Positions 1,186-28,466 of a stretch of 28,466 bases of DNA are shown piece by piece. The notes under the pieces are model-generated. The model worked only from the letters and a program-made list of their open reading frames with translations, was not told the DNA's origin and did no database searches. Origin of the DNA: Moniliella sp. 'wahieum' (lineage: Eukaryota); the NCBI GenBank assembly GCA_003971905.1, contig RSEE01000025.1, positions 744,001 to 772,466 on the forward strand, read 5' to 3'. Position 1 is the first letter of the stretch. Each line of letters starts with the position of its first letter. The position numbers were made by a program, and so were the translations under genes.

Positions 1186-1509
1186 CTAGTAATGCCCAAC
1201 CTAGTTGAACGTGACTCGGCTGGTTGCTTCCAGTTGCCTCCTCCTAGTACACTCTTGTGCCGGCACTGTTCCCCCCCACCTGGGTTGCGAGCAGCCTGCA
1301 CATTTGGCCAGTGGTTGGTTACAAACAAAGACGTCTATGGTGCACAAATCATCACTGTGGGTAGCTCGCTGGCTGGTTGGATAGTGGATTCGTTTATTCG
1401 TGTGGGCACATATGAGGGGAAAATATCGAAAACGCTTCGAAGTCGATAGAGAGAGGGTACATGTACATTGGACCAATGGGCCGGCAGGACGACGGGTACC
1501 CTGACGCCC

Positions 1510-3714: not shown

Positions 3715-3726
3715 GGTGGGCAGGCA

Positions 3727-3775
3727 GGGGTGGTGGAGGCGGGGGGAGTGGGGGTGGGGTGGGGGTGGGGGTGGG
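3727..3775 (+). other. G-run cluster with G-quadruplex potential immediately upstream of the acyl-CoA oxidase start
   Basis: GGGGGGAGTGGGGGTGGGGTGGGGGTGGGGGTGGG: more than four G-tracts with 1-3 nt loops. Confidence 0.4.
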
Positions 3776-6700: not shown

Positions 6701-7287
6701 TTGTATATTAGAACGTGGTATATACGCGAGAGCTGAACCGTGAGTCATACTTTTTACTCCATCAACGAAGAAAGGCTCTATAAAAGGATTCTCGCTCCCT
6801 GCCTTCAAGGTTCTGTCATTTTCCATCCTCGCTCGACCTCCTAAATCACAAGGCAGCTCGCGCCTCCAAGCTTCATCATGCCCAACACAGAGCCGGAGAC
6901 TGCAAAGGAGTGCGTCTTCTAGTGAGGCATCAGACTTATTGTGTGCGCGCCGAGTTGATCGCCGCTCTGGCTTGGATCCGGACTGAGGATCCGCTGTCGC
7001 TTCGGGTTCGGTAGACGGGCCGGTCGACTGTGGGCAACGCACCTTTCAGCGTTGTCCTCCGTCCAAAAGCATTTTTTCCACATCGCCATTTTGCGTGGGA
7101 GACCCAGGGGGCAATCCAGAGAGGGGCTGAAGGTGCAACTCAGGGGAACTAGCCACACGTCTGACATATTAATGTCAGATGTGAGCCACAGTAGAGATGG
7201 TGGCCAGCGCTCACCGGTTGGAACCAGCTGAGATCGTGCTTGCGCCGGAGCGCTGGCCAGACCAATGCGTCTAACCCGTCCCGTCCG

Positions 7288-7520
7288 CAACTCGCGCTTA
7301 CCTACTCAGCCTACTTCCCCTCAGACTTTAACTTTGTCCAGGGAGGTAAGCTGCCGGGGCTGTACTCCTCTGTCGGGGCATCAGGTAATGTGCCGATCAA
7401 TGCTTCTACCTCCTCCGGCTGTGAAGGTGGGTCGCTCGACGGGACCGGCACCTCCTGCTGGTCGGCTCGGGTGATGTGGCGCGCAGACGGCCAAGGCGAG
7501 ATCTAAGTCTACATCCCCCA
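7288..7520 (+). pseudogene. Polysaccharide lyase family 14 (PL14, alginate/glucuronan lyase-like) remnant
   Basis: LTYSAYFPSDFNFVQGGKLPGLY...CWSARVMWRADGQGEI*VYIP matches the PL14 pattern F.F..GGKLPG / S.R.MWR..G.GE.Y.Y. An in-frame TAA sits at 7504-7506 where Tyr is expected. No recognisable intact N- or C-terminal part. Confidence 0.75.
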
Positions 7521-8993
7521 GAAGTTGGGGGGAGGGTACAAGCTTTGAGGGTTTCTCCATACTTCTTCTCCGCCATCTTCAAGTAAACGTTCATCCTGCC
7601 TCAGTGGTGTGCGATCATATCCATACTTTTCTTGTGGGCAATCGTACCATCAATGTTAGGCGTAATGCTCAGCTCACTACAACGGTATGGTGTGTGATCA
7701 ATGTGAGTAGGTCGGTACATATATGGTTCATACCACGTCTGATGTACACCATCATGATTGCCAGCAGGAAATGACCCCTGTGGCGACCCTAACCGTGCAA
7801 GCGTCGCAGAAGCTCAGTCCTTTCAAAGACGGTACATCGGGCTATATAATAGGCTGGCTCCAAGTGCTGCGTGAAAGAGGTACAAGAGTCATGGGCATAT
7901 GCGGAATGCTTCCAATGCCGTTTTCCTAAATACCGATCTAGGAAATCAGAATGAAAGTGCTCCAACTATGCACGGGCAAGCGGTCCCCCAACGTACTGGC
8001 CGCTTGCCTCCACAAGTTGTAAGCGCAAAGGGGAAGACGAATCGACAACGAGAGGGAGGGGACGTGACTGATTTCATATCGGGAACGAGGCTGAGGAGGG
8101 CAGATAACGAAAGGAGGAAAGAACATATGCTCTTCAAGCATTGTCCATTGTTTCTGAGGGCTATATAAATGCTTTTCTGTGGCTAATATCGGGCGCAGCG
8201 GCAGGTGTTCCTCAAGGTCGGTGTGGCCGGGCAAACGATGATGTGTGACGGGTGCTATTCCCATGGCCGGCGGTGGAAGTTACGGTTAGGACAGGGACGG
8301 CATCCGCTTAGGATGTACTATGACCTAACGGTGCATGCCCTTTGAAGATATCAGGAGATGGAGATGGGGGAAAGGATAGAGATCATATTCATCGAGTGGC
8401 ATGGAGCGAGGTATATATACCTCGGAGAAGAGGAGGCCGAGTGAGCTGACTCACACGGAGAAAACAAAAGGGGCATAGAACCAAAAGGGGGACAGGATCT
8501 AGAACAAAACAGGGTCCAGTGAAACTGGTGACATCGGTGACCAGGTGAGCCTGGTCCCGACAGAAGATGAACAGGTGGTCGAATTTGGGGGCGCCGAATG
8601 TATGTTTTAGTTGGCGCGGAGGGGTCCGGCTGGTCACTTATCAATCAAGACTTACATCCACCTGTCAGTTCTAGGGAAAACAACGCACCGTTGTCTGCCT
8701 GAACCCCAGAGTCGAAGGCGGTCTTTGTTGGGACTACCAAAAGAATGTGTTGCCCCTCCATCCGCGCTTTGCGAAGTCTGTAGAAAGGAGCGCTCCACTC
8801 CCCCCCCACCATCTACATAGCAGCAGCAAAACCCTACTGAGCCACATGGAGGAGGATGCTGATTTCAACATTGCAATCACAAGCGGAACCAGCGCCGAAA
8901 TTTTGTGACCGGGCGGAATGCGCAGCGAGATGGCGCAACTGTCCTCAGGAAGAAGAGTTTGCTGGCCCCCACCACATCCAATTTTTGCCCATC

Positions 8994-9909
8994 ATGTCAG
9001 GTTTGCCAGCTAAGCCCACCGCGCCCATGGGCAACGTCCCTGCCGCCGAGCCCACCGAGCCTGCCGCTTCGGCCGACCCCAAGCCTTCCTCTGCGTCCAA
9101 CGACGAGGAGGCGGGGACAAGACGGTGTTTGATGACCAGGAAAATTTTACTCTCTCGCACCCGCTCGCTTCCACCTGGACCATGTACGCCGACCTGCCCA
9201 GCTCCAATCGCCGCGCCACCTCTTCTTCCTGGGGCCAAACGATGGAGAAGCTGGCCGACGTGGACACAGTCGAGGCGTTCACTGGGTACGTGCCAACCCC
9301 TTTTCCCAACTCTTCTTTTTCCACCCCCTCCCCTCCCCTTGGCGAGCACGAAAGCTAACCACGAACCCCTGCTGTCAAGTCTGTTCCACCATGTGCCTGC
9401 GCCGACGCAGCTTGGCCAAAAAATGACTTTTTACCTTTTCCGGGATGGAATTCAGCCGGCCTGGGAGGACAAGGGGAACGTTGGTGGTGGCTCGTGGAAC
9501 GTGCAGTTCCCAGGGACAAGTCGGCGGGCAAGATTGATGACATGTGGCGCAACACGATGCTTGCCGCGATTGGCGAGACGTTGGACATTCCTTTCCCCTC
9601 GGGCGCGCGTCCGATCCAGAACCTGGACAAGGCCCCCTCGGTCGTGGCCGGCGTCGCGTTGGCGGCGCGGCCGAACTTTTACCGTATTTCCATCTGGACC
9701 CCTCGCCTCCGGATGCGAACAAGAATGCGGAGGATGATGTGGCGCGCATCGGCCAGCGCACGTACGATGTCGGCTTGAACTTCAAGGTCCATGCTCTTGG
9801 CTTTACGCAGGAGGAAAGGTTGAGCACCGCCTACGGCTCCGAGGTCGAGTTCCAGTCCCATGAGGATGCAGGTCGGAACAAGGGCCGCAAGGGTAAGGTG
9901 GGCGTTTAG
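8994..9909 (+). CDS. Eukaryotic translation initiation factor 4E family protein (divergent)
   Basis: HPLASTW, FYLFRDGIQPAWED..N.GGGSW, DDMWRNTMLAAIGET, RPNFYRISIW, EFQSHED. Intron 9286-9379 (GTACGT...GCTAAC...AAG). Stop TAG ends at 9909. Frameshifted. Confidence 0.9.
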
Positions 9910-10539
9910 GTTCCCCCTTTCGTGTAGTCTACCGACCGCGTCTCTTCTTCCTCTGCTCTCCTCCCCCTCGTGCGAGACTCTACAGTGGAGGTGGTAGAGC
10001 GCTCCGCCTGTGAGCCGCTAGACTCTAGCTGCCGCCCCTACAGCTCACATGCCCCCCAACCCATGGCCATTTCTCTTGTGCCGCTATTTCTACGAATCCT
10101 TTTCTCCCTCGTTGGCTTGTGCTTCTGTCACGTTATTCGGATGTCATCTTCTACACCAACTCCAAAGCCATGCATCTCTTGTTCTTGCCCAACATGTCAC
10201 ATGTTGCCAATGCAGCTCCGTCCATTCCACTGCAGGACCAAAGGCGTTCGGCTGGAAAGGTTCGAGCCCTCGGTTGGCTGGACTGGATACTAGGTACTGG
10301 AAGCGGGCAGTTGCATCTTATAGGGGCTCAGGCGCTCAGGCTGAGCTATGACACTGACGGGATGACTTGGACGACCGAAGGAGAATGCGTTGCGTGGGAG
10401 GAGGCCTTGCCGCCGCGAAACGGGGGCCAATGTACCTGGCCCGTTAAGCGACTCGATTGGTTGGTCCGGTAGTTAGGCCTTAGGGGTCAGTATGTCAGTC
10501 GCTGACCGATCAGAATGCGTTGAGCGTTAGTGAGTACGT

Positions 10540-11290
10540 GAACGTTGTACACATCAACGCGCCAACGTTCACGTTAAGCTTAACGTTAACGCTAAGCCTT
10601 AGTAGCGCAGCAGAGAGAAGAGCCGCGGCTTCCCAGGGACTTGAAGCTTGAAGCTGACACCCAGGGGGTTGGATGGAGTAGGTCGATTAAATGGTTGACC
10701 GAATGAACCAGGGGCACCAGCAGGGACACTCGAGGAAGGGGCAGGGGAAGCCGACGCTAAGTACCGTTACACGTTAAACGTTAAACTTGAACGTTGAAGA
10801 CGTTGAATCTTGAAGCTTGAAGCTCATCTGGGCAAGATGGCCAGATAGAAGATGTCCTTGGAAACGGTGCAAAACAGGGAGGGAGCATCGAGCACACGGC
10901 TATGTTGGTGCCGCACGTGCTGGCCCAGAAGGCGGTGTACGGAATCCAAGGATGTGCCCTCCATCATGCATCGCTAGCACACTAGTCACTAGTCCTAGTC
11001 ACTAGTCACGTCACCAGCTGGAGCCACTAGTCACTACTAACAAGTCCCGACTCTGGACCGAGATCGTCGATTCGATGACATGATGACATCTGAGATCCTC
11101 CGGTCTCTGAGATACGTACTCTCTAACGCTCCGAGGCGCCACGCAGCAGCCGATGCAATCAGTTATTAATCATACTCGGTACAGAGCGTGAGGCTTGAGG
11201 TACTGAGTAACTCAACCCTGTACGTGAGTACACTGAGTACAGAGTCCTCGCAGTCTTAGTACGTTTAGTACTCACTTACTGATACCAGCT
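10540..11290. repeat. Intergenic zone of short degenerate 7-bp-period repeats built on palindromic hexamers (AACGTT, AAGCTT, ACTAGT, AGTAC(T))
   Basis: CTTGAAGCTTGAAGCT at 10640-10655; ACGTTAAACGTTAAA...TTGAAGCTTGAAGC at 10771-10824; CACTAGTCACTAGTCCTAGTCACTAGTCAC at 10980-11009; TACTGAGTA/ACTGAGTAC at about 11200-11240. Confidence 0.7.
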
Positions 11291-11923
11291 GCGATCAAAC
11301 TGGCGGTCTGGCGCAACTTGCACATCTGCACCACGGGGCCATTGTTCAATCTACGCGGCGTTCCCGCACTGCGCCCTGCTTCAGAAGACCCAGGCTGTCA
11401 AAGGCAGCGCACTCATCCTATTCACTTTTCCTAACGCTTCATAACGATGGGACGTTGGAGTGGATTGGAACGCCTCGTGCCCAACGCCGACAGCCTCCAT
11501 TGCCGGTTTCATACCCTCTTCAGCTTGATCGAATCCCTGTTGCTCCGGGCCACCCTACCTTACATGTTACAAGCCTTGATGTGCCCCGTACCGGTGACGG
11601 ATGGTGGGGTGGCTGATACTCAAAACGGAATGTACTGAATCGATAGTCGATAGTCCTTGGTAAATTTGAAAACTCAATAAGCGAATCCAGTGCCCCGTGC
11701 TGAGTGGCTGAGCCTTGCTGCGCCGTTGCGGGCATGTTGAGCAGCGGGGCTGCAGCGGCTGAGTGCTGCCTGCGCCTGCTGCGCCCGCTCTGGAACCTGG
11801 GGTGTCCAGTGTGTGGCTTGAAAAATCCCGAAGATAGGGGCGGGAACGCCCATTGTACTACGTGCAACGTTCAACGTAGTGTTCGTTCGTCGAACGTCGT
11901 TGAGGTTGAACTTGATGCGTTCT

Positions 11924-12006
11924 CATCGACCATCGACCATCGACCATCGACCATCGACCATCGACCATCGACCATCGACCATCGACCATCGACCATCGAC
12001 CATCGA
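11924..12006 (+). repeat. Perfect heptamer tandem array (CATCGAC)11 plus a partial unit
   Basis: Eleven exact CATCGAC units at 11924-12000, followed by CATCGA. Confidence 0.97.
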
Positions 12007-12891
12007 TTCTCCATGGTGATGTTGATGCTGCAGATGCCGGGGGCATCTGGTGCATCGTTCTTTGATGCTGGGATGGGGGGGCCTGACGCATCCTCAGGCT
12101 CAGGCCTCATGAGGACCAAGTCTATTCGAATACTCACAGACTTTATTACTGTTGCTAAACAGACTCATACGCCATCGCTCTAAGACCCAATCGCGCTCAG
12201 TCGAACAGCGATCTTACCGTCTTACCCGTGGGCGGAGATCCAAGAACCTCCTCTGGTTTTCGGGGCCGACGGGTCGAAGTGTATCCCAGTGTTGGGAACG
12301 TTGAGCGGGGAGTACATGGTGCAGACAAATACAAAATACATACTGTGGGTGCGCCCTGGTGCATGGTGTGGCCTGGTGCACGGTGCACCGGGAGGCTGGC
12401 TGGCAGCAGCCATCGGCGCATTGTAGCGCACATCATGCATGATCGTCATGCACCATGCCGTCGCACCTGTGGCGTTAAGCTTTAGAGCGAAGGCTTAGCG
12501 CTGTAGCGCTGTAACCCTGCCTCCTTGCATATCCAGCGCACTGGCCCCGCGCCGTTGCTCCCACCACTGAGCCCTTGCGCTCTCCCTCCGGATTGCGTGC
12601 AGCAGCGCATCCGGCACCAGCGCACACTGCCCCGCGCCCATGCACGGCGCCACCCGCAGGCGAGTGCCTGGCCACCCGTCACAGACTGCAGTCCCTCGCA
12701 GCTAGCACTATCCGCCATCAGTGCATCCGCCAGCGCAAGCCCCGCGCCCGGCCCTTTCCTGCCCCGATCCGACACTACACGCGTGTCCTCCGGCAGCAGC
12801 CTCCAACCAACCCTCTCCCTCCTCCATCCAGTGCCCCCCGCTGCCCCCCCCCCCCCACCGCTCCCATCCCCTGCTCCCGCCACCACCAGCG

Positions 12892-15082
12892 ATGCAGCCC
12901 AGCATTCCGCTCAAGCGTTTCGACACGGGCGAGTCGGATGAGTCGGCCATCGACACCGGCATGGGCGAGGGCATGGAGGAGGTCCACCCCGGCGGCATGC
13001 CCACCAAAGTGTTCAGCTGGCCGCCCGACACCAAGGTATCTGACGACGCCCCCTGGGCTCACATCGTCCCCGTGCGGACCAAGGACACCAGCGACGACCA
13101 TGCTGCCCAGGCGGAAATCGAGAGTGGCGACCGCTTTCCTCCCGAGGACCAGCAGGACGTCCTCGATGTCTTGGGCGGCGGACTTGTCTCCCATCTCAAT
13201 CTCTGGCGCGGGCAGAAGGCTTCCTTGGCGACTTGTCCGGAGTCCCTACTGCCCAACAGCAGGAGCTCTTTCATCTCCCTGCCGGCTTGCGCAAGGGGCT
13301 CAAGCAACGACAGTACGTTCTCTACCTCTCGCACTGCTGCCGCTGACTTCTCTCCCTCCACAGTGTACAGAGTGAGTCGTGATTTTTTGTTCTTCCGTAT
13401 TGTGCGAGATGGTGGTGGGGAAGGTTGGACCATCGATCGAAATGCTAACCAACGAGACGCTAGTGATCGCCCTCAGCTCTGTGATTGCTGGTGGGATTTT
13501 CCTCCAGACGGGACATACCCTGGCTGTTGCCGGCCCGCTCTCCCTCTTGATCGCGTATCTGTTACAGGCGGACTGATTGCGTGCGTGATACTGTGCGAAG
13601 CCGAGCTTGCCAGTTTAGCCCCTGTCTCGGGCTTTTACGTACGGCACCCGTCCATGTGGCTGGATGAGGCGTTGCGTTCGCCACGGGCTGGGCTATCGTC
13701 GTAGGCAACGCGCTGGCGCTCGCGCCGGCCGAACTAATCTCCTGTGCCCAGATGGCACTCTACTGGGGAATGTCTCCCCTGCCGTCCTAATCACCGTCAT
13801 GGCCACTCTGATTGTGGCATCCAACGTGTTTATGCTACGCATCATGGGGGAGGTGGAGGTGGTAGCAGCAGTGTTCAAACTGATTTTTATCATCATGCTT
13901 GTCATTCTCAGTCTCTGCCTCGACCTAGGTGCCGGGCCCAAGGGGGAACGGATCGGGTTCCGGTACTGGACCGCGCCCGATGGGCCCATGCGATCTTTTC
14001 TTCTCCCAGGGGCGAGCGGTAGGTTTTTCGGCGTTTGGCAAGCGGCCATCACCAGCGTTTACACCTTCACCACCATCGACGCTACGTTTGTTGCCGCTGC
14101 TGAGCTCGAGGCTCCACGACGCAACATCCCCAAAGCTGCCAAACGGTAGGTTTCTCTCCCTCTACGCACTCGCTTGTCTTGCGGTAGCAGATGACTGACA
14201 AGCAGGTAGTGTGTTTATTCGCGTTTTTGTCCTTTATAACCTGCTCATCATTTCCATGGGGCTCATCGTCTCCTCCCGTGACCCACGGCTGAACCGTACC
14301 GTAGGGACCCAACAGAGCGTCTTTGTCATTGCGGTCGAAACAGCTGGCATCAAAGCCATGCCCAGCATCATTAGTACGTCCTCTTGTCCCTTGCTCCGCC
14401 GTCCTTTCTCCATCCACAAGAAATTGACAAGTTGGATCACAGACGTTTGTGTCATCGCTTCATCCTGGAGCGCAGCCAACTCGTTTGTCCTTGCAGGTTC
14501 GCGTACCTTGGTAAGCCTTTCTGAGGAAGGATATGCCCCCAAGGCGTTTACCAAGATTCACAAGTTTGGCGTGCCCTGGGTCGCGGTTTTGACCATGTGC
14601 ATTTGCTTTTTTGGCCTTTCTTTTCTGGCCATGTCTTCGCGCGCCACTTCCATTTTCAACTGGTCCAGTGCGTGTGCCATGTGTACCTGTGGACATACTC
14701 GGTAATCTGCCTTACCTCGATCCGCGTACAACGCGGGATGAAGGTGCAGGGAATCAAACGTTCCTCCCTTCCCTGGAGTATGAGGGGGCAACCGTACATT
14801 GCCTACGTTGGACTGAGCGGCTGCCTCCTCCTCCTTCTCAGCAACGGAATCCAGATTATGGTCCCGGGTCACTTTTCCGTCCCGGCGCTCCTCTCTTCGT
14901 ACTTGGCTCCGTTGGTTCTGCTAGGCGTCACGGCCCTGTACAAATTCTGGTACCGTACCACCATTGTACCAGTGGAGGAGATGCCAATCCAACCCTGGAT
15001 CATCCAACATATCATGAACCCCGAACCTCCTGCCCCTCGTTTGAGAGGGTGGCGCCGCCTCCTCGTTTTCCTCTGGGCATGA
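12892..15082 (+). CDS. Amino-acid permease (APC superfamily, yeast amino acid transporter family)
   Basis: Spliced LRKGLKQRHVQMIALSSVIAGGIF, AGPLSLLIAY, MGEVE, IGFRYW, PRRNIPKAAKRVFIR, SWSAANSFVLAGSRTL, GVPWVAV, QPYIAY. Introns 13313-13363, 13372-13463, 14146-14209 and 14374-14442. Stop TGA ends at 15082. Start codon is tentative. Confidence 0.9.
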
Positions 15083-16907
15083 GTGCCTTCACCATTTTCT
15101 CCTCCTGTATCATAATATCTTGCCCGCATCAATTCTCTGGATCCAACTGTTATGTGGGGAGTGAGACTCTTGAGGTTCGTAGTCGCGCATAACCAGTCAC
15201 AAGGCGGCCGCACAGGGGGGACTCTAATCCGCCAAGCTGGACGATTGATGATCGGTTTCCCACCAACGATGGGATCAACGAGGATAAAAAAGTCAGGATC
15301 GTGTTGCCAACGGAACGAGGCCGACCAAAGACAACAGGGAGGAAGAAAGGAAAAGAGACACCGAAGCAATATAAACTTGATGCGTTCGTTTTTGTAATGG
15401 CCCATTGAACAAGGGGTCAACTCTATACTTGCTTCCATACCGTCGACAGCACAGGCGGATTGTAGGGAGATTGAAGCAACAGAGGATACCGTGGATGCAA
15501 TAGAACAGATAATCCACCGGCAGTGGGGATATAGGGGTCAAATACATCTCATCCACCAACCCATGTTGTGGGTGGTGGCAGAGTGGGTGGATATGACGAC
15601 GGGCAAAGCGTTAGCACATAAAAAGGGTGTGGGGGGGGGTCACGGCATGAAGAAAACAGGCGTAACGATGAGAAACACACAGAAGCGGAGGAAAAATGAT
15701 TGCTTGCGCAAGCAGGGTGGAGGTGGCCGGGGAGGGACGGGGAAATGAACAACCCAATGTGTGCTGGCTCCCTGCGGGTTGGCCTCCGCGTTTGGTACAC
15801 GTCGAATTCTGTTTCGGGGCTTCGATGTAGCAGGGCTCTCAGCAAGGTAAAACCGGCGGAGCATGAAAATGGCTTCAGTTCCAGGTCGCCCCCCGACCCA
15901 CGGCAGATGGATAGGTCGGACGAAGGATGCATACCGAGCGCTGTTTGTGGGCTTCTACCGCTGATGCTCGTGCCGGGACGCTGCCTCAACTAGGGCAAGA
16001 GTGTAACGGGGTCGTCCGGCACTTGCAGGATGATACTGTTGATGCCGAACTGCGCGCTTCCCGCCGCCATACTAGGACACGCATTGGATCCCGAATTGGC
16101 CTAGGGCAGCCCTACGCATGGGACACGCACAGAATAGGACCGCGCATGTCATGCATCATGGTCAGTCGCATGGGGAAAGAGGGCGAAAGGGAGAGGGGGG
16201 CATCGCGCGGCGGGTAGAGCAGACATCTGATTCCCGGTATCTCTGCGAACTCAGCATGAATGGCGTGCATGACTCAGCACGGTGCTCTTGCAACCAAAGA
16301 CACACCCCAGCCGATTCTGCGCCGTGTTCGGCTGCATCTGGTACAAGGGCCAAGGCGAGACGCATCGCCCGCTAGCCAATCACCCTGCAACGGCTGCCCG
16401 GCGGCGTCGACGTGATTGGCTACCCGTTAGCGCCACATGGTGTGCGTGCATGACCTCGACTGTCGCAGCGTCGACGACGGGCAGAGACGGAAGGATGACA
16501 TGGATGACAGCAAACAAGAAGACCGCGGGCCGACACGTGGCGGCGATGGCGGTGGCGGGGCGCAGTCCGGGTGACAGGAACCGATTTGCGGGGAACGGAC
16601 TCGATCTCCTGGCGCCCTACGGCCTAGAGCTGCCCCACAGGCCTGGTCCCGGAGCGGCGTCCCTGTGTGGGGTAAACGTTTAAAGGGGAGGTTCTGCCGG
16701 CGAATACACGCCGCAGCACGATGATGGGTGGCACCCAACCAGTGTCGGCGCAATTCAACCCTAGTGGACATGCACCCTCTCACTGAGCCCGCTTCCCGCG
16801 GCCTGCACCCCCGCCGCGGGACGCGTGCCGGGCGTGTGGCGTTAGCATTGAATATTGAGCCAAGTCCCGAGGCAGCGCCCGCGTCCTGCTCCCACCCACC
16901 TGCCGTC

Positions 16908-18756
<1,849 letters not shown>

Positions 18757-20153
18757 GAAAGGCTTTAGTCCTTGTTCCAAAAGCTCCTCATCGCGATTTC
18801 CTCTCCTATTCTCCTGAGGTCCTACTAGGTTCTCCATGAATCGCCTGCGCCTCATGCTCAGTCTAGGCTCATAGGCTCAGGCTCGGATTGGGTGCTCTCG
18901 CGTCAAGCATATACGCAGCAATAAAAAAGAGAAAAAAAATACTGGTTGAAAGGGATTTGATCACGAGGACTCCAAGGAGCCGCGTTCTAGTGCTACGCAC
19001 TGGTCTGCCGTAGGACAGCTGAGAGATTACTACGCGATCTGTTGTTGTGGAAAACATGTTCCTTTCAGCCTCATAAACTTTGATGACCCACAAAGCCTAG
19101 TACTTCTGCTTTTTGTCTACCAGTCTCTCTGCCGGGTAAGGCCTAGCAGTAGTACCTCTGAGTACAGCCTAAGCAAGCGCCAGGCAGCTGTTCTGCGCCA
19201 CCGACTGACCCACCCTCGCTTCTTCTGCTCGCGTCCCCCATAGGGCTGCATGCATGCATTGCTGTACGAAAACCAATCGCTTTGGCAGCGCATCGCGTGC
19301 CGGCTTCTGCGGCTGCACTCATCTCCCTCAGTCTCTCTCGCTGCAAGACGCCGCCCACGCCTGCGGCTTGGACAGTGTGCCCAGCACATGGCAAACATTG
19401 GTCATTAACATTGCCAACGAACTCCTCCATGCCCCCTTTGAATGGAGCTTGTCCGGCACACCGCTTCGTCTGCCTTGTCCTCCTCCTCGTCTGCCACCCT
19501 CTCCTGCCCACTGGCGTATACGTACCGGTCTCCGGCACGGCCGCAGCGTGCGAGCAACCGCCGAGACACGGCACGGCCGCTGGCTGCGCCTGCGCCGCAC
19601 GCCGCGCCGAGCGGAGGAGCAATCGAGCGGGGCAGCGCAACACAGTGTGACAGTGACGCGTCGCGTGCGTATCACGCCCTGCGACAAGCGGCCCTCGGAC
19701 GGAGCGGCTTTAATAAGCTTTACTGATCGATTTATCAACAAGTAGGAGCTATTAGGCCCAGCGCACCCTCCCGGCCTGGTGGAACGCGGCATCAGCTGCC
19801 CGGCTGGTCCGCCAATCCTGCCGCCGACGCTTCCCCATGCTCCGCCCGCCGTCTCCCCCGTCGCTTCTGCCTGTCCCCCGCTACGCCCTCCCCTCCGCTG
19901 GCGTGGGACGTAGTCGTCATGCGGAGGTGGGTTTGGGCGGACGAGGAGGAGGCAGCGCGGGGCCGCCAACGGCCGCTCCGCCGGTTCCAGCTCGCCGAGC
20001 GCGTGGGGGAGCTCGTGCCGCACAGGGCTGCTGTTCCTGCGTCCAACAGAGGATGATCAATGTCCTGTGTTTCGGACGCACGAGACTGGACAGCAGTGGA
20101 CTTTTTCCCCCCTTGTCTTACGATCAGCGTACGATTTTCCGTTGGTTCCTATG

Positions 20154-20160
20154 TATATAA
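20154..20160 (+). promoter_or_regulatory. Putative TATA box of itp1
   Basis: TATATAA about 120 nt upstream of the ATG at 20282. Confidence 0.45.
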
Positions 20161-20281
20161 GTATCGTACGCTTAATTGGCGATGGAGAGCCTTTGGTCGA
20201 CAACACTGGAAGTCGTTGATCTGAACGGGTACGACCGCTGCGACTTCCGCACACGGCCCCGCCCCACTGACTGTTTTCAGT

Positions 20282-22270
20282 ATGGGCTCCTTGATCGATA
20301 TCTCCCCGGCCTCCAAGGAGGGCTCGACGCACGATGCGCTCGCGGGCAGTAGTAATCAGGTTGACCTGGCTGTCGGAGAGGAATCGCCGGCCGGAACCGC
20401 TGGCCGTGTTCTCCCGCTGGGCTCAGACAAAGGACGCGGTGGCCCAGGTGGACCTGGAACAACAGGAAGACGAAAAGGATGATCTGGGGCCAAAGGCGCT
20501 GCCGACCGAGCCGTACTGCGCCTTCACTCAGGGAACCAAGCTCTTCATTGTCCTGACCGTCTCCATGGCCGGCTTCTTCTCGCCGTTTTCCATCAACATT
20601 TACATTCCGGCCCTGCCCCAAATCGCACAAAAGCTGCATATCTCTGGGAGTAAGTGGACCTGTGGCGAGACTTGGCCGTACTAGGACGTGCGCTTCTGAC
20701 CTTTGCTCCATGCCGCCTCTGCTCCTAGCCGACACCAATGTCACGGTGACCGTCTACATGATCGCCCAGGGTTAAGTCTTCTGGGCCCCGCTATCAGACG
20801 TACGTTCCCCCCTGTCTCCGAGTACTTCTGACCGTGTGGGCGTGTGGATCCGCACGCTGGTGTTCTGACGCGAACCTGTACCCTTATGAACGCGATTCGA
20901 TAATGGATGCTGCTTGGTTGTGTATACCTGCAGGTTTTGGCCGCCGACCCATTTACCTCATCACGTTCCTAATCTACTTTGCCGCCAACCTCGGTTTGTC
21001 CTTTACGAACGTCTACTGGCTTCTCGTCGTTCTGCGTATGGTCCAGGCGGCCGGCGCGTGCAGCGCGATTGCCATTGGAGCAGGGACGATTAGCGATGTT
21101 ACGGAGCGCAAAGAGCGGGGGGGTTACATGGGGTACTATGCCCTGGCGCAGTACACCGGTCCGGCCATTGGGCCCGTCATTGGCGGCGCCTTGGCCCAGC
21201 GGTGGGACTTCCACGCGACCTTCTTCTTCCTCACTGCGCTCTCGGGCCCTTTCTCATCTTTATGGCCCTGTTCCTCGTCGAGACACTGCGCGTGCTAGTG
21301 GGCAACGGAAGCGCTCGCACCGGGGGATCTACGCCCCCTCCTCGAGCCCAGCTGCTCGCCTCCTCCTCCTCCACCTCCTCGGCCCCCGCCCGCGCATGAA
21401 GAGCCCCCCCAGCGCCCGTCGAGCAGCCCCTGGAGTTCGGCTTCCAACGGCCCTTTTGGTCTTTGCCCGACCGGAAACTAGTCGGCCATCGCGGCCTTTC
21501 GATGATGGTCTATGCGACCTACTACCTATCCTCGGGCTCGCTGCCCTACCTCTTCAAAGAGGTGTACGGCCTGGACGAGCTGATGATTGGCGTGTGCTTC
21601 GTCCCGAGCGGCGTGGGGTGTGCCCTGGTACCGTCGTTGCGGGAAAATTGCTCGATTGGGATTACCGCCGCGCCCTGCGCAGCCGCGCGTACAGCTCACC
21701 CGTGCCCGCTTGCGCTCGGCCTGGGTCTACTTGCCTTGCTATTCCGTCTCGCTCTTGGCATACGGCTGGTGCGTGCGTGCACATACGAGCATTGCCGCTC
21801 CGATCGTCTTTCAGTTACACGTACGTCCTGCTTTGCCCGCATGCAATGTATGCAGCACCGTTCTACGTATACTAATGCGGAAACGCTAACGAGAATGATG
21901 ATGATGATTCTGCCTTTCTCTTTCTTCTGTGCCGCCCACCCTGCCCATCTCACATGGTATATGGGCGATGACCTCCCTGGACACGGACATGGTATTCTAG
22001 TGGGCTGTTCTCCACCATGTACTTTACCAACATCAACACGCTCATCGTCGACCTGTACCCCGGTAAGGCCGCCAGTGCCACGGCGGCCGTTAATGTAGGC
22101 CGGTGCCTGCTGGGCGCTGTGGCTGTGGCGGTGGTCCAGCCGATGATCCAGGCCATGGGCGCAGGATGGACGTTCACCCTCGGCGCACTCCTCACGCTCG
22201 TTGTGGGGCTCGTGTGCCAGGGCCTATTTATCTCTATGGCGAGGCCTGGGCCGCACGCGCGTCGGCCTAG
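20282..22270 (+). CDS. itp1: MFS transporter, orthologue-like to Ustilago itaconate transporter Itp1
   Basis: [161 protein letters not shown]. These closely match U. maydis Itp1 as I recall it, and the gene lies next to tad1. Introns about 20650-20728, 20800-20933 and 21821-22000. Ends [13 protein letters not shown] at 22270. Confidence 0.85.
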
Positions 22271-23808
22271 GCATCCTCCTCGTCCTCCTCCTTCTTTTCC
22301 TTGTCTTCGTCTCTCCTGCGGAGAATCACGCATCCGCTTCGCCGGATCTATCTATTGTCTACTCTCTCGGCTTCCGATGGTTACACTTGCGTGCGCTCTC
22401 TGGTTTTATACAGTGCCCCATTTTTATCCTGCTGCGTCCCGTTGCTTGCCCAATGCATCATGCCCAATGCATCCTCCTGCGCCAGTGGATGTGGAGCGGG
22501 AGGCCGCAGACCGTAGTTGGACGAGGCGTAGTAGTACAGGCTCCCCTCGGGCGCACATCGCACGCCTCGGATCGCGTCGCGTTGCAACCTGCCGCGCCCC
22601 TTCTCGTTGGGCATAAGCGCGCTCCCGGCTCCCTTTAACCACCGCTAAACCCAATTTCTCGATCCGTTGCAACTGTGAAGGCGGTGGCCTAGATTCAATA
22701 GTCACGATCTGGGGATGGCGGCTCTCTGAAAATGGTTGGAACTGGCCCCATGTTCATCCTGAATCAGATTGTTCGCCTTGGCCAGTGTACGTTTTCTCGT
22801 CCCTATTCACGCGTTATACTGATGCTCATGGAAAAAACACCAATAAGGTAAGTACGGTGGGCACTCATCGTAATGGCTACTTTCGCGCTTTGCTGCAACT
22901 GAGAGAAGAGAACGGGGCGGAAGAACGCAGGTTCGTAACTCGGATCAACAAAGCGAACGGCGAGCAAGCGCGTTGGCGCTGCGAGGCTCAATGTACGATG
23001 CACGGTGCACGACGGTTGGACCGATAGCGAGGATGGCGTGGAGCAAGCGACCCCCAACATATGGCGTGAGCAGGATCATGCACGACGCCGGTCCTCGGCG
23101 GCCGCGCTCGGAGGTAGCGGCGTTGCTTCCACACCATCATGAGAGAGCGGGAGGCCGATCGCTTCTTGGGGTGAGAGACCGACGCACGCAGCCTCGTGTG
23201 CATGTGCACCGCGCAGGATGCGCAAGAGCCGTCGCGTGCGCAATGGGGGCCAGCGATGAGCCGCGTTGACATGTGACATGACATGTGATGTATGCGGCAA
23301 GTGACACTGAAAATTGAATAGTGACTAGAGCGACGCACAGACCACCAGGTACGACCCGCCAAGTCCGCGAGCACGCTGCACATGCGGTCTGGGTACGCAG
23401 GCACCGTCCTGGCCCACGACGGACGAGGCGGCCTTGCCGTTCGCTCGGCCGTGCGCGCTGGGCAGCCGGCAGGACGTGCGACATGTCACAGCAGATGCGG
23501 ATGCCCCCACCGTGCCATCCGAGCGCCGCGCTTGTCCGCCGGGCGACCATTCACGATTCCATTCATCATCTGAACGACGATCCATCCGCCGTCTGCGACG
23601 TGCGCTCCGCACAGGCTGTCCGCCTGCGCCGTGCGCAGTCCCCCCAGTGTACCGCCGGCTCCCCGCCCGATTTGGGACACCGAGCTGAGACGCTGGACGG
23701 GGTCTGTGCGGGACAAGCGTATAATGTAAGCTGTCCTCCTCGGCGCCCACTGCCTCCTCCCCCTGCTCTCGCTCTCACCAGCACCGCCTCGGACGCACTC
23801 CAAGCCCC

Positions 23809-25354
23809 ATGGCACCGCTGCCTGCCGCCCCACCTTCCCCCACCGCCGCTGCCGCGGCCTCGGTCCCCCTGCCGCTCACCGGCCACCCGGACCTCTCCGA
23901 CACGGGCGGCACTTTCAGCGACATCTTTGGCACGCCGGCTATGCGGGCCATCTGGTCGGACCAGAATCGCGTCGCATGCTACCTGGCCATCGAGGCGGCC
24001 TTGGCGCGCGTCCAGGCCGACCTGGGCATCATCCCCCGCCGCGCCGCCGAGGAGATTGCCCGCCACTGCCGTGTGGAAGAGGTGGATTGGGCACTGTACA
24101 ACGCCAAACGGAGCGGATTGGCTACCCCGTCCTGGGCATCGTCCAGCAGCTCGTCGCGCACTGCCAGGATGGCTTGGGCGAGTACTGCCATTGGGGCGCA
24201 ACGACACAGGGTACGTTTTCGTCTACGCTCGCTTCAGCCTGCGGCCGGCGCGCGCCGCCGCAGGGACATGCAGAAAGAGAAAGAGAAGGGTGACTGACAC
24301 AGTAAGAGGGGACTTTGTTGGACAGACATTACGGATACAGCGACCGTGCTGCAGCTTCGCCAGTCCTTTGGGTTCATCAAGGCCAAGTTGGCCAGCATGG
24401 CAGCGAGCTTGACGCGCCTGGCGCAGACCTACCATGACGTGCCCATGGCCGCGCGGTCCAACCTGCAGCAAGCGGTGCCCATCACCTTTGGGTTCAAGAT
24501 GGCCCGCTTCCTCGCCACTCTGCAGCGGCACCAGGCCCGCCTCGCCGAGCTCGAGGCGCGCCTGTACACACTCGAGTTTGGTGGCGCGGCAGCAACCTTT
24601 CCTCGCTCGCGCGCACACGGCCTCGCGACGCACGAGGCGCTGGCCACGGCCCTGGATTTGGCTCCGGCAGAGATCGCATGGCACACGGAGCACGACCGGT
24701 TCGCCGAGGCCGCCACGTTCCTCGGCTTGCTCACGGGCACGTTGGCCAGTTGGCCACGGACATCAAATTGATGTCCCAGACCGAGGTGGGGGAGGTGAGC
24801 GAGCCCTTCCTCCCCCACCGCGGGTCGTCGTCCACCATGCCCCAAAAGAACAACCCCATCTCCTGCGTCTATATCCACGCTTGTGCCGCGCACGTCCGGC
24901 AGGGCGTAGCGGCCTGCCTGGACGCCATGCAGTCAGACCACGAGCGCGGAACAGGGCCCTGGGAAATTCTCTGGTCCAACTGCCCCTGATGATGAACTTC
25001 ACCTCGGCCGCCCTGGCCAACGCCGATTTTGTCCTTGCTGGCTTACAGGTCTTCCCCCAGGCCATGCAGCGCAACTTGGGGCTGACCAAGGGCCTGATCG
25101 TCTCCGAGGCGGTGATGATGGGCCTCGCGCCGACGCTCGGAAGGCAGTATGCCCACGACGCCGTGTACGCCTGTTGTCGTACGGCCCTGCTTCAGGACCG
25201 GGCACTGGTCGACGTGCTGTGGGAGAATCAAGAGATTGCGAGTAAGCTCGATCGCAGCGAGCTGGAACGGCTGTGCGATCCGGCGAATTCCCTCGGCCAG
25301 TGCGACCAGTGGATCGATCGCGTCTTGGCCCGCGCGCCGGCCGCTCCGGCCTAG
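23809..25354 (+). CDS. tad1: Trans-aconitate decarboxylase Tad1 (fumarase/aspartase superfamily, 3-carboxymuconate cycloisomerase-like)
   Basis: LTGHPDLSDTGGTFSDIFGTPAMRAIWSDQNRVACYL, IGYPVLGIVQQLV, GLGEYCHWGATTQ/DITDTAT, PMAARSNLQQAVPITFGFKMARFLAT, EIAWHTEHDRFAE, signature GSSSTMPQKNNPISCVYIHACAA, DAMQSDHERGTGPWEI, LGQCDQWIDRVL. These closely follow U. maydis Tad1 as recalled. Intron 24211-24325; stop TAG ends at 25354. Confidence 0.9.
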
Positions 25355-26205
25355 GTGCCTGCCCCACTCGTCGACTCTGGTCCGGGGAGGACCTGCTTGG
25401 GGGGGGCGGCGTGCCTTCTTGTGATCCTCCCGGGCGCACCCACGCCCCATCACGATCGACTCCCGAGTGTGTTGCTGTATAAAGTACTCTGGCGTGGTGT
25501 GCGTCGAGGACAAAGCCGGCACCACGCACGCCCTTGTCTCCTTGCACACCTCGTACGCAGCGCGGCACACCCGCCGGCACCACCCACGGCTCCCACCCTA
25601 CGAACCTAGAATCCATCCACCTTTTCCTCTACCCACGTGTACGCGACTCGACGAAATCTACCGACCCGATCTGCGTGTCGAGTACGATGGTGCACCCGGC
25701 CTGGCACGAGCAAGAGGGCGCACGGACACCGTAGGTCACAGACCGCAACGTCCCAGGAGAGTATCGGTGAAATACGCAAAGATTAGGAAGGGTCAGAAAG
25801 ACGTGTACATGTATTCCATTCACAAGTAGAGCCGTTTTGCCTCAAGCCTCTGCAACCTCGTGGCGGGGGGAGAGGGGTGGGGGTGGGGGGGGGGGTTGCG
25901 CAGCTCGGCCCTTGTCCGTCGTAGCGTACGCGTACACACGTCCACATCGATGCGCACACCTTCAAGGCGCCCCCCGCACCGCGCCGTCCTGGACGAAAGC
26001 GATCTCCCTCTTCCTTCCTTCCGACTCGGGACTCCTGTCCAACACACACGCATTCTCAATCCGCCAAATGAGCGGAACGGCTCATCTTGCCGGGGGGAAC
26101 GGGAGAACGAAACAAGACCAACCGATCCAACGTCCGCCCCTGCGCCCTGCGCGCCGCACCACGTACATCTCCAACCGCCCTTGCCCCCGCCTCAGGCCTC
26201 AGGCC

Positions 26206-27205
26206 TCACTGCGCATCCTTATACGACGAAGCTGTACACAAAACCACGTACCAAAGTCAATGCTCCTTTCCTTCTGCTGCGGCCGTGCCGGCTCGGGCTG
26301 GATCCAAGGATCGCGCTCGACTCACCGAGATCAAGTTGCCATCGGGATCGCGCACGTAGACACTGAGGATCGGCCCGACGGCGCCCGTGCGCCGCACGGG
26401 GCCTTCGACCACGTCAATCTTTTGCTCCGCGAGGTGTTGCTGTTGGCGTTCGTACATACGTAGTGGGAGCGGGAGGGGGGTCGGTGGGTGAGCATTCACG
26501 CCGTAGGAGCGGGGAAACGAGGGGTGGAGAGGACCGACAGAGGAGTAGGAACGGGGGTGCGTACCTGCGCAGCGGCGATGCTGTCCGAGATGATAAAGCA
26601 CAAATCCTGGGATCCTGGTTGGGGCAGGGCGGCTTCTGGGGGTGCGTGAGGAGGGTGAGTGTGTGTGGCGTGGCGTTGGGCGCTCACGCACAGGGGGGGG
26701 GGACGTACTTGGTTCGCTGAGGAGCAAAGGGGGGATGAGGGAGAGAGGAGATGGAAAGAGAGCACAGAACGTGAGAAGGAAGCAAGGCCAAACGGACAAG
26801 GCCATCATCCAGTCGGGTCAATTCGTCTGTGTGCTACTACTCTGCACTGCTCGACCCTGCTCTTGGCGCGCACCGCGCTCCGCTCCGAGCACAACAGGAA
26901 GGGGTACATACAACTCGTTGCCCTTCTGGTGCAAATTGATCTTCTGCTTGCCAAACGCCAGCGCCTTGCGGCCCGGACCAAAATGGACCAGCTCCATCCC
27001 GAGGCGGGTGTAGAACGCAACGGTGCGATCAACGTCGTGGCACGTAATGACCAAATGGTCCAGGGACGCAATGGTGAATCCACGCTGCGCCGCGGCGGCG
27101 CTGGAGGGGAGCGCCGGAGCGCACGGAGGTGGTGGTGCAGGAGGGTGGATGGGGGGACGCGGGCGGCGCGGGCGGCGCTGGCGCGCACGAGCGCGGGGGC
27201 ATCAT
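26206..27205 (-). CDS. rdo1: VOC/glyoxalase-bleomycin-resistance family protein (GLOD5/STM3117-like), probable rdo1 counterpart of the itaconate cluster
   Basis: Spliced product IASLDHLVITCHDVDRTVAFYTRLGM...[37 protein letters not shown]...VVEGPVRRTGAVGPILSVYVRDPDGNLI. Exons about 27205-26912, 26716-26709, 26635-26565, 26439-26326 and 26231-26206. The family call is from motifs; the rdo1 name is inferred from position next to tad1. Confidence 0.8.
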
Positions 27206-27771
27206 GCACATGATGGTGGTGGTGGGTGCTGGACGCGGGCGCGGGATGGCCGATGTCGATGACGCTGGACCGTCGACGGTTGGGAAGCGGCAAGGCGCAG
27301 AGGGCGCTCAGGCAAAGACGTCATCGGCCGGCCCGGCGCCGATGTGCCGGGCGAGTGACTGGACGTTAGTTGGTGCGGTGTGCAGAGGCGACGAGCGATG
27401 GCTCTGCTATGCGCGGGAGCGCAGCTGCTGGCAAGCCAAGTCACCAAGTCACTAGTCAGCAATCGACGTTCGACGCAGCACTCCGACGCTGCGCCCCGCT
27501 CCTCCGTGCGCCGCCATCTCCGCCGCCGCCGCCCATCGGCGCAGCGGACGTTTTCTCTCCAAGCCGCGTGCGCCGCGTGTTCCCGCCTCCCCGGCTCCCC
27601 TTGACGCCACGATTGTGCCAGGATTGTTCCGCACGTGCTCCGGACCCATGAGCGAGGCCGTATCCCCAACCGCTATCGCCCTGTGGACGGCCCGCTGGGC
27701 CCGCCCGACTTCAGGCACCTCAAATTCCGCGCCAACCATGCGCGAGTGGGCACGATGGAACGAGGGCTGCG

Positions 27772-28028
27772 GTGCGAGTACAGCACCATGACCGGTCTCG
27801 AAAGCGCTGCTGATCGGGATCAACTATGTCGGCACCTGCGCCGACCCCACATGGTACTCGAACGACGTGGTCAACGGTCGGCACTTTCTGCTCCGTGCGG
27901 GCTTTGGCGCAGATAACACGGTCCTTACGGACCAAACCGCCGATCCGCGCGTCCGCCCCACCCTAGAGGCGAGCGACCGACAGTGGCGAGGCAATGAATC
28001 AACGATTGCATTGGTGGGCGCTTATTGA
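27772..28028 (+). pseudogene. Metacaspase (peptidase C14, Mca1-like) truncated remnant
   Basis: EYSTMTG, then after a frameshift (frame starting 27801) KALLIGINYVG...NDVVN..HFL...GF...N.VLTD...DPR.RPT. This is the start of the metacaspase catalytic domain. Similarity then ends and a stop is reached at 28026-28028 without the FHYSGHG or DSCHSG catalytic motifs. Not in the ORF track. Confidence 0.7.
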
Positions 28029-28466
28029 TAGTGGAGGCAGGGGGGAGCCCTGCTCGCGCTCGCTGGTAGCCGACTTGCCCTCCGGTCCACCCAGCTCGCT
28101 CGCAGCTCCGTTACCTTCTTCCTCGCCCAGCGCAAACTCCTCGTCAGTTCCACCAGGCAAGGGGGCCAAGGCTACCTGCGAGAAGCAGCCCTGCGCGCTG
28201 CCATCCGCGCCGATCGCCGCACCCCGGTCCCATCGACACCCCACGACCAAGACCACACCTGTCGCTCGCGCCGCTGGCGTCTTGACCGCCACAAAACGCC
28301 TCCCCCATCGACTGTAAACAGACCACGCTTCCTTGCAGATGAACCACGCGCGCTTGCCCGGGGCGCACCAGAAGCTGCAGCTGCCATTGCCGTTTTCGAT
28401 TCGCTCCGACCCGTTCGCCACGACGTCCTCTGCGCTGCATTCGACCTGCTCAGGGGGTACCCCTTT
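27999..28466 (-). CDS. Possible 3' end of an unidentified gene entering from beyond the window
   Basis: Open frame from the window edge (KGVPPEQVECSAEDVVANG...GTDEEFALGEEEG) with plausible coding composition. No family recognised. Confidence 0.25.
   Translation of the reverse strand, partial: KGVPPEQVECSAEDVVANGSERIENGNGSCSFWCAPGKRAWFICKEAWSVYSRWGRRFVAVKTPAARATGVVLVVGCRWDRGAAIGADGSAQGCFSQVALAPLPGGTDEEFALGEEEGNGAASELGGPEGKSATSEREQGSPLPPLSISAHQCNR

Follow-up and report, generated by a model that had tools for sequence, protein, structure and literature searches.

The window, by which we mean the whole 28.5-kb stretch of DNA that was analysed, carries three genuine genes in its right part: tad1, itp1 and an rdo1-like gene. 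Our best explanation, held with about even confidence, is that they form an authentic piece of an Ustilago-type itaconate cluster lying beside the housekeeping genes of what is probably a Tilletiaria-like exobasidiomycete, and that this sub-cluster arrived or left by horizontal transfer. What argues for this is the orthology of Tad1 and Itp1, the grouping of a flanking SSB-type Hsp70 with that of Tilletiaria anomala, and the discordance between the Kimura distances of the two. Further weight comes from the lack of linkage between SSB and the cluster in three smuts, the lack of Tilletiaria proteins among the close matches, and a GC-rich right part.

The three genes and their surroundings

The sequence is error-rich. 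One-base indels occur at about 3–6 per kb across the window, and the gene for the essential Hsp70, SSB, is hit as much as tad1 and itp1. Because an essential gene carries a similar density of indels, frameshifts are uninformative on decay; we rejected the idea that they prove the block to be made of pseudogenes, and they are likely sequencing errors. The features are collected in Table 1.

Table 1. Features of the right part of the window, with strand and basis of assignment
Feature	Position	Strand	Basis and remarks
SSB-type Hsp70, left flank	16908..18756	+	Pfam HSP70; 6 indel frameshifts, intronless
Non-coding gap between SSB and itp1	18757..20333	.	Pfam-negative, codon-bias-negative
itp1 orthologue, MFS itaconate transporter	20334..22270	+	PF07690, UMAG_11777 alignment, tree
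tad1 orthologue, trans-aconitate decarboxylase	23809..25354	+	PF00206, PF10397, PDB match, tree
rdo1-like glyoxalase/VOC (GLOD5-like), 3 exons	26257..~27215	-	Pfam Glyoxalase, PDB 3ey7; start codon uncertain
Metacaspase-like remnant, 55 aa	27801..27965	+	PDB matches only

Two open reading frame pieces of tad1 have the U. maydis enzyme, trans-aconitate decarboxylase 1, as their PDB match (E 6e-61 and 1.4e-58) and carry the Pfam domains Lyase_1 (E 1.9e-17 and 3.9e-09) and ADSL_C (E 4.1e-21). A frameshift-aware alignment over positions 23736-25345 gave 376/493 identities to the U. maydis protein, about 77%, with a single phase-1 intron at 24211-24325 and, in the well-aligned part, five one-base indels (near 24101, 24593, 24612, 24749 and 24976). 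In the tree, the window protein falls inside a Tad1 clade with 100/100 support. The residues known to be key to Tad1 are those of the SS loop, GSSxxPxKxN, with Ser320 and Ser321, together with Arg360, Thr362, Trp365 and Trp369 (PMC11880804). All 14 of the positions that we checked (the loop from G319 to N328, R360, T362, W365 and W369) are the same as in U. maydis, and they include all six with mutational evidence of importance.

Tad1 shares its fold family, Lyase_1 plus ADSL_C, with CMLE, and in the tree bacterial CMLE-like sequences surround the Tad1 clade. The next best PDB match of each piece was indeed a CMLE-type lyase (E 1.2e-30 and 1e-23), but the window protein matches Tad1 some 30 orders of magnitude better; on those E values and the clade placement, we rejected a CMLE of aromatic catabolism. 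A metagenome scan with U. maydis Tad1 returned just 2 loci, of 46% identity and CMLE-like.

The second gene, itp1, contains a fragment (20936-21295) with 90% identity to UMAG_11777, the 'Itaconate transport protein' of U. maydis. Across 20505-22258 there are 367/443 identities (83%), the MFS_1 domain is found at E 2.6e-21, and the Itp1 clade has 100/100 support. There are about three introns, near 20654-20728, 20800-20933 and 21825-22000.

The rdo1-like gene lies 0.9 kb from tad1. Its product has a Glyoxalase domain (PF00903) and matches PDB 3ey7 (E 2e-13), and our three-exon model places introns near 26895-26633 and 26564-26440. It shares 69/124 identities with a Jaminaea protein and 43/59 with an unnamed partial protein. 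Going by family and position, the gene would be the orthologue of UMAG_12299; that this orthology is only putative counts against the transfer reading.

What surrounds the three genes is much as an earlier note on this DNA had described it. The stretch beyond itp1, said there to be about 1.5 kb long and geneless before SSB is reached, measures 1577 bp without a Pfam match or codon-bias signal, and it occupies the place where adi1 follows itp1 in U. maydis. The metacaspase remnant reported beyond rdo1 also held up: 6/6 of its PDB matches are metacaspases, all weak (E 0.024-1.1). Neither the remnant nor the open reading frames downstream matched Pfam at E<=5, the catalytic His/Cys motif was not seen downstream, and the remnant falls short of a metacaspase (Peptidase C14), the mark of which is a p20 domain that bears the catalytic His and Cys. 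The same note had found no PrpF-type isomerase, mitochondrial carrier, bHLH regulator or P450 in the window. A Pfam scan of 405 stop-to-stop open reading frames of at least 45 aa (132 + 94 + 150 + 29) gave no match to PrpF, Mito_carr, HLH, p450 or Peptidase_C14, and short signature motifs for the absent families were likewise missing from all six frames of the window. These absences apply to the 28.5-kb window and to a sequence with many one-base indels; the right edge lies about 1.25 kb beyond rdo1, so that cyp3 may simply follow outside, and within the window the linked adi1, mtt1 and ria1 of a complete Ustilago-type cluster were not found.

Lineage signals of the flank and the block

The window SSB has 549/612 identities to T. 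anomala SSB2 and 534/611 to the U. maydis protein. It grouped with T. anomala with support of 99 in a quick tree and 100/97 in a later one, and forcing it together with the 11 smut-order rows cost 24.8 lnL (AU p 0.022), a grouping chosen for testing after the quick tree had been seen. Smut-order SSB proteins are at least 96.6% identical to that of U. maydis (4/4), whereas the window protein is 87.2% identical. All this makes the host probably a Tilletiaria-like exobasidiomycete rather than a smut. Two things count against the transfer reading here: the placement comes from one gene, SSB, and the window SSB, at a distance of 0.111 from that of T. anomala, is only slightly nearer to it than the U. 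maydis protein at 0.117. The ACOX piece of the window gave no usable taxonomy in the protein atlas.

The block tells a different story from its flank. By Kimura distance, the window SSB is 0.140 from that of U. maydis, 9–28 times the distance between smut genera (0.015 from U. maydis to P. hubeiensis, 0.005 to S. graminicola). For Tad1, the same three distances are 0.278, 0.232 and 0.097, and for Itp1 they are 0.196, 0.316 and 0.169. The window Tad1 and Itp1 are therefore about as near to their U. maydis counterparts as the proteins of different smut genera are to one another, an excess of similarity of 8–24 times over the expectation from SSB. No Tilletiaria-labelled protein was found among the close matches of either Tad1 or Itp1. 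Literature searches on itaconic acid found nothing on Tilletiaria and nothing related on Exobasidiomycetes, and a search for Tad1 with horizontal gene transfer returned nothing related. Separate contigs and locus tags indicate that SSB is unlinked to the itaconate cluster in U. maydis, S. graminicola and P. hubeiensis. Composition shifts too, with 62.4% GC in the right part vs 57.6% (p 0.002); GC3 is 0.76-0.85 in the block and 0.67-0.76 in the flanks, although these ranges overlap, a point against transfer. Transfer of the three-gene sub-cluster is nonetheless the likeliest cause that we can suggest for the discordance, with a chimeric contig as its rival.

Supply of trans-aconitate and rival explanations

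By analogy with the U. maydis enzymes, a cytosolic Tad1 would decarboxylate trans-aconitate to itaconate, and Itp1 would transport the itaconate over the plasma membrane. In U. maydis the cluster comprises cyp3, rdo1, tad1, itp1, adi1, mtt1 and ria1; deletion of adi1 or ria1 costs the fungus its itaconate, and yeast with Tad1 alone does not produce any (text of Geiser et al. 2016, PMC4720413). Given these two results for adi1 and for Tad1 alone, a genome lacking adi1 could only use trans-aconitate of other origin. This is where the earlier note's proposal of a stand-alone trans-aconitate module comes in, and judged from sequence it is plausible: the checked Tad1 positions are conserved, and no copy of the Ria1 promoter motif precedes tad1 or rdo1. 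Against it stand the nearness of the right edge, the error-rich assembly, a stop codon in itp1, and M. mackinlayi, which according to the text of PMC8951962 lacks mtt1 and ria1 and still produces itaconate (2.2 g/L). Use of trans-aconitate by the module without a dedicated Adi1, through uptake from plants or another isomerase, is a tentative suggestion that we hold at less than even confidence; that the partner genes sit elsewhere in the genome is a rather doubtful one, and that the block genes are an idle relic seems quite unlikely.

The rival that survives best is a split cluster, with adi1, mtt1 and ria1 (plus cyp3) on other contigs or just beyond the window and with de novo synthesis of itaconate in the manner of U. 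maydis. We consider this possible, if on the unlikely side. The closeness of rdo1 to the window edge favours it, as does published variation: in P. hubeiensis mtt1 lies outside the cluster (text of PMC6064134), and there is the M. mackinlayi case. Yet the texts of PMC6064134 and PMC8951962 report no strain in which tad1 is kept while adi1 is missing or unlinked, although their figures and supplements might show one, and in the window the neighbour of itp1 on that side is SSB, behind a non-coding stretch of 1.6 kb. The promoter evidence cuts both ways. A Ria1 motif, CNYNNNNRTCACGY, is described in the promoters of all cluster genes in the text of PMC6064134, and one match lies upstream of itp1 (19664-19677). 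Chance alone would give 2.5 matches over the window, however, and this one is the sole match; none was found upstream of tad1 or rdo1, where indel errors could mask copies.

It is improbable, in our view, that the three genes are decaying, nonfunctional leftovers of a formerly complete cluster. What speaks for decay, and leaves room for it beside transfer, is mostly in itp1. Its coding sequence of about 1.55 kb has the highest indel density, with about nine one-base indels, and at 20773-20775 a TAA stands in frame, which one single-base error does not account for; the metacaspase-like remnant adjoins the block as well. SSB, however, has a comparable density of frameshifts, 6 in 1.85 kb, Tad1 keeps 14/14 checked positions, and the 77-83% protein identity and strong codon bias of the block argue for continued selection.

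An assembly artefact, in which a smut block was joined to an exobasidiomycete left flank or came in as a contaminant, also strikes us as improbable. It would account for the discordant lineage signals of SSB and block, and the rise of 5 points in GC and the low consensus quality are in its favour. The pattern of indel errors, on the other hand, is alike on both sides, the GC of the gap between SSB and itp1 (59.3%) is near that of the stretch directly left of SSB (58.4%), and the block proteins are no more than 77-83% identical to those of the closest named smut. The junction has no repeat able to cause a false join; scans for tRNAs, tandem repeats, other repeats, Rfam families and bacterial promoters and terminators found nothing at the junctions.

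Least probable of all is vertical descent of an ancient rdo1-tad1-itp1 core from the ancestor of smuts and exobasidiomycetes, to which smuts added adi1, mtt1 and ria1. The window Tad1 and Itp1 split off before every other member of their clades (96/91 and 95/92), and with this basal position the 'ancestral core' of the earlier note fits; tree shape alone is compatible with descent, which counts against transfer. Simple vertical descent does not fit, because the Tad1 and Itp1 distances to smut proteins, no greater than those among smut genera, are far too short relative to SSB. Tilletiaria-labelled proteins are lacking among the close matches, and the root position is unsure, nesting among the named smuts not being rejected (AU p 0.277), a result that counts against transfer as well.

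If the transfer reading is taken further, rdo1-tad1-itp1 might be a mobile module passed between smuts and an exobasidiomycete lineage and working without Adi1, Mtt1 or Ria1. Trans-aconitate from plants, the aconitase inhibitor found in grasses, would be its substrate, and itaconate, which acts against bacteria, its exported product; the smut cluster would be this module with supply genes added later. We offer that as a speculation that is unlikely to be right in full.

Likeness to known systems

The nearest known system is the U. maydis cluster, where rdo1, tad1 and itp1 come in the same order as in the window and encode the Tad1 and Itp1 with which we aligned the window proteins. In S. graminicola, too, Itp1 and Tad1 have consecutive locus tags. 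The window differs from U. maydis in the absence from it of adi1, mtt1, ria1 and cyp3, in the SSB Hsp70 at adi1's place, and in a host marker unlike those of smuts. For the function proposed for the block in the earlier note there are other precedents. Yeast Tmt1 and E. coli Tam are trans-aconitate methyltransferases, a known means by which cells dispose of trans-aconitate, an inhibitor of aconitase. They have this disposal in common with the proposed module; they differ from it in belonging to an unrelated enzyme family, in methylating rather than decarboxylating, and in having no transporter partner.

Were both the host placement and a genome-wide absence of adi1 to prove true, no earlier Tad1/Itp1 pair would come from beyond the smut family, and none would lack the isomerase. 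Disposal of trans-aconitate would then be separable from itaconate biosynthesis, and we would have a concrete case for the assembly or spread of the cluster. Engineering would also gain a second Tad1 and a second Itp1, both divergent. Should the partner genes instead turn up elsewhere, or the contig prove to be a chimera, the window is merely another variant of a known cluster.

Published partial clusters are likewise modular, with parts kept without the remainder. The text of PMC6064134 describes a P. tsukubaensis cluster without rdo1 and cyp3, and that of PMC8951962 several isolates that carry itp1 only. All the partial clusters in these texts are from Ustilaginaceae, unlike the probable host here. 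Partial clusters as such were already known from these accounts, and the window is a further variant among them, with tad1 but without a linked adi1.

Genes of the block and their neighbours

Pfam scans of stop-to-stop ORFs gave the layout in the table below. The DNA is fungal and GC-rich, with a GC content of 50–68% in 1-kb steps, averaging 57.6% at 1–18756 and 62.4% at 18757–28466 (p 0.002, from 500-bp windows that are not independent); the intergenic DNA of the three-gene block (itp1, tad1 and an rdo1-like gene) shares the higher value (59–68%). The polysaccharide lyase piece sits in a 5-kb stretch of lower GC (about 50–54%) that is otherwise unannotated. Some 15 units of a 7-nt microsatellite, (CATCGAC)n, occupy 11910–12020, and long poly-G runs lie at 3594–3622 and 25868–25896. 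Strong matches to PF10712 (NAD-GH) opposite the Hsp70 gene (16845–18876, −) were rejected as a second gene, since this family is known to arise artefactually when Hsp70 is translated in antisense.

Genes recognised in the window
Feature	Position	Strand	Evidence
Cys/Met PLP enzyme	3–1182	+	Pfam
Acyl-CoA oxidase	1583–3337	−	Pfam
Polysaccharide lyase 14 piece	7195–7503	+	Pfam, E 9.3e-19
eIF4E	8841–9775	+	Pfam
Amino-acid permease	13376–15079	+	Pfam
SSB-type Hsp70	16908–18756	+	Pfam
MFS transporter (itp1)	20334–22270	+	Pfam
Lyase_1/ADSL_C enzyme (tad1)	23809–25354	+	Pfam
Glyoxalase/VOC gene (rdo1-like)	~27215–26257	−	Pfam

In the PDB, the two lyase pieces of tad1 match Trans-aconitate decarboxylase 1 of U. 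maydis (E 6e-61 and 1.4e-58), followed by CMLE-type lyases as the second-ranking family (E 1e-30 and 1e-23). A frameshift-aware alignment to a Tad1 protein of the U. maydis cluster yields 376/493 identities and a single clean phase-1 intron at 24211–24325 (GTACGT...CAG). The SS loop G319–N328 and residues R360, T362, W365 and W369 are identical to those of U. maydis Tad1; S320, S321, R360, T362, W365 and W369 are reported as important by mutation (PMC11880804). In our tree the Tad1 clade falls, with weak support (80/79), among bacterial CMLE-like proteins and apart from the fungal ones of Pisolithus and Mucorales, a placement that hints at a bacterial origin of Tad1. An MFS fragment of itp1 (20936–21295) shares 90% identity with UMAG_11777, which bears the name 'Itaconate transport protein'; aligned in full, itp1 has 367/443 identities to it and contains about three introns. 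Divided into three exons, the VOC gene is GLOD5-like and matches PDB 3ey7 (E 2e-13) and a Jaminaea protein (69/124 identities); we call it rdo1-like from its family and position.

What of the missing partners? None of the 405 ORFs of at least 45 aa in the 28.5-kb window, scanned in batches of 132, 94, 150 and 29, matched the Pfam families PrpF (Adi1), Mito_carr (Mtt1), HLH (Ria1) or p450 (Cyp3), so their absence, as claimed in the earlier note, holds for this window. Relaxing the threshold to E<=5 for 40 ORFs of the block region brought nothing new, nor did a six-frame scan of the window for short signatures (bHLH basic region, P450 haem loop, carrier motif) yield anything relevant. A scan of codon bias, with genes of the window itself as training set, found no coding signal in 18757–20400, 22350–23775 or 25400–26250, bearing out the claim of no recognisable gene between the SSB-type Hsp70 gene (SSB) and itp1. 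Beyond rdo1 about 1.25 kb remains, and the absence of cyp3 extends just that far. The metacaspase remnant proposed there survives as a resemblance: all six PDB matches of a 55-aa stretch (27801–27965) are metacaspases, but weak ones (E 0.024–1.1), with no catalytic motif in the surrounding translated frames and no Pfam domain detectable downstream (E<=5).

Discordance between host marker and block

Over its C-terminal 188 aa, SSB shares 91% identity with Tilletiaria anomala, 80% with nearly all of the named smuts listed (82% with P. flocculosa) and 79–80% with Malassezia and Tilletia; at full length the values are 89.7% for T. anomala and 87.4% for U. maydis. SSB groups with T. anomala and an unnamed ENA protein (SH-aLRT 99 in a quick tree, 100/97 in a careful one), and constraining it to the smut order lowers the log-likelihood by 24.8 units (AU p 0.022, for a group chosen after the first tree was seen). 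All four smut-order SSBs compared are at least 96.6% identical to U. maydis, the window's 87.2%. Host placement comes from this one gene. The window's Tad1 and Itp1, by contrast, stand at about the distance from U. maydis that separates one smut genus from another.

Kimura distances for the host marker and two block proteins
Protein	Window–U. maydis	U. maydis–P. hubeiensis	U. maydis–S. graminicola
SSB	0.140	0.015	0.005
Tad1	0.278	0.232	0.097
Itp1	0.196	0.316	0.169

Taking the window–U. maydis distance over each U. maydis–smut distance, the block genes are 8–24 times too similar relative to SSB. No Tilletiaria-labelled protein was among the close Tad1 or Itp1 matches in shared-word searches, which is weak evidence. 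The best account of the data is transfer: the three-gene sub-cluster would have passed between a smut-related lineage and that of the window, in either direction. The window's Tad1 and Itp1 branch basally in their clades (96/91 and 95/92); nesting among named smuts is not rejected either (AU p 0.277). The main rival, a chimeric contig or contaminant, seems improbable: the error pattern is alike on both sides, the gap between SSB and itp1 (18757–20333) has a GC content near that of the stretch immediately to the left of SSB, and no repeats were found at the junction. SSB and the itaconate cluster lie on separate contigs in U. maydis, S. graminicola and P. hubeiensis. The 'ancestral core' suggested in the earlier note, if inherited by simple vertical descent, suits the topology of the trees but is at odds with the distances.

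Function of the block

Adi1 produces the trans-aconitate that Tad1 decarboxylates; deletion of tad1, adi1 or ria1 abolishes itaconate, S. cerevisiae with Tad1 alone makes none, and plants accumulate trans-aconitate as an antifeedant, according to PMC4720413. If the genome truly lacks adi1, Tad1 would therefore be usable solely on trans-aconitate from another source, and a putative stand-alone module of this kind, the idea of the earlier note, is a reading we hold tentatively. It is nearly as likely that the partner genes are present but unlinked. The sole copy of the published Ria1 motif lies upstream of itp1 (19664–19677), with none upstream of tad1 or rdo1; as 2.5 copies are expected by chance, the count is uninformative.

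An idle relic we consider unlikely. One-base indels, mostly apparent deletions, run at about 3–6 per kb of coding sequence over 16908–25354 in housekeeping and cluster genes alike: five in the well-aligned part of tad1, about nine in itp1 and six in the 1.85 kb of SSB, which leaves no room for introns. Because SSB is essential and highly conserved, the frameshifts are not taken as evidence of decay and probably belong to the assembly, which resembles a long-read consensus that has not been polished. In itp1, an in-frame TAA (20773–20775) falls where U. maydis Itp1 reads LSPVI; at this point the window's sequence is shorter by 6 nt, so this is the sole lesion beyond the reach of a single one-base error.

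Relation to known clusters

Our searches found nothing relevant on itaconic acid in Tilletiaria or Exobasidiomycetes, or on Tad1 gene transfer. The passages on published clusters that we consulted describe neither tad1 retained without adi1 nor a cluster beyond Ustilaginaceae. They do report variants: P. tsukubaensis lacks rdo1 and cyp3, and P. hubeiensis has no mtt1 within its cluster (PMC6064134); M. mackinlayi, without mtt1 and ria1, still makes 2.2 g/L itaconate, and several isolates carry itp1 alone (PMC8951962); a 2026 survey adds four species with similar clusters (PMC13208730). An unnamed Itp1-like protein and an Rdo1-like one (P0126/P0310) are both listed with 10,458 bp as their longest contig, and an Itp1-like and a Tad1 protein (P0121/P0472) with 10,088 bp; from these equal sizes, comparable small blocks may exist in other organisms. 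In S. graminicola, Itp1 and Tad1 have consecutive locus tags, and the window's itp1–tad1–rdo1 is the U. maydis order reversed. The discordant host signal is an added finding on a variant of this known cluster.
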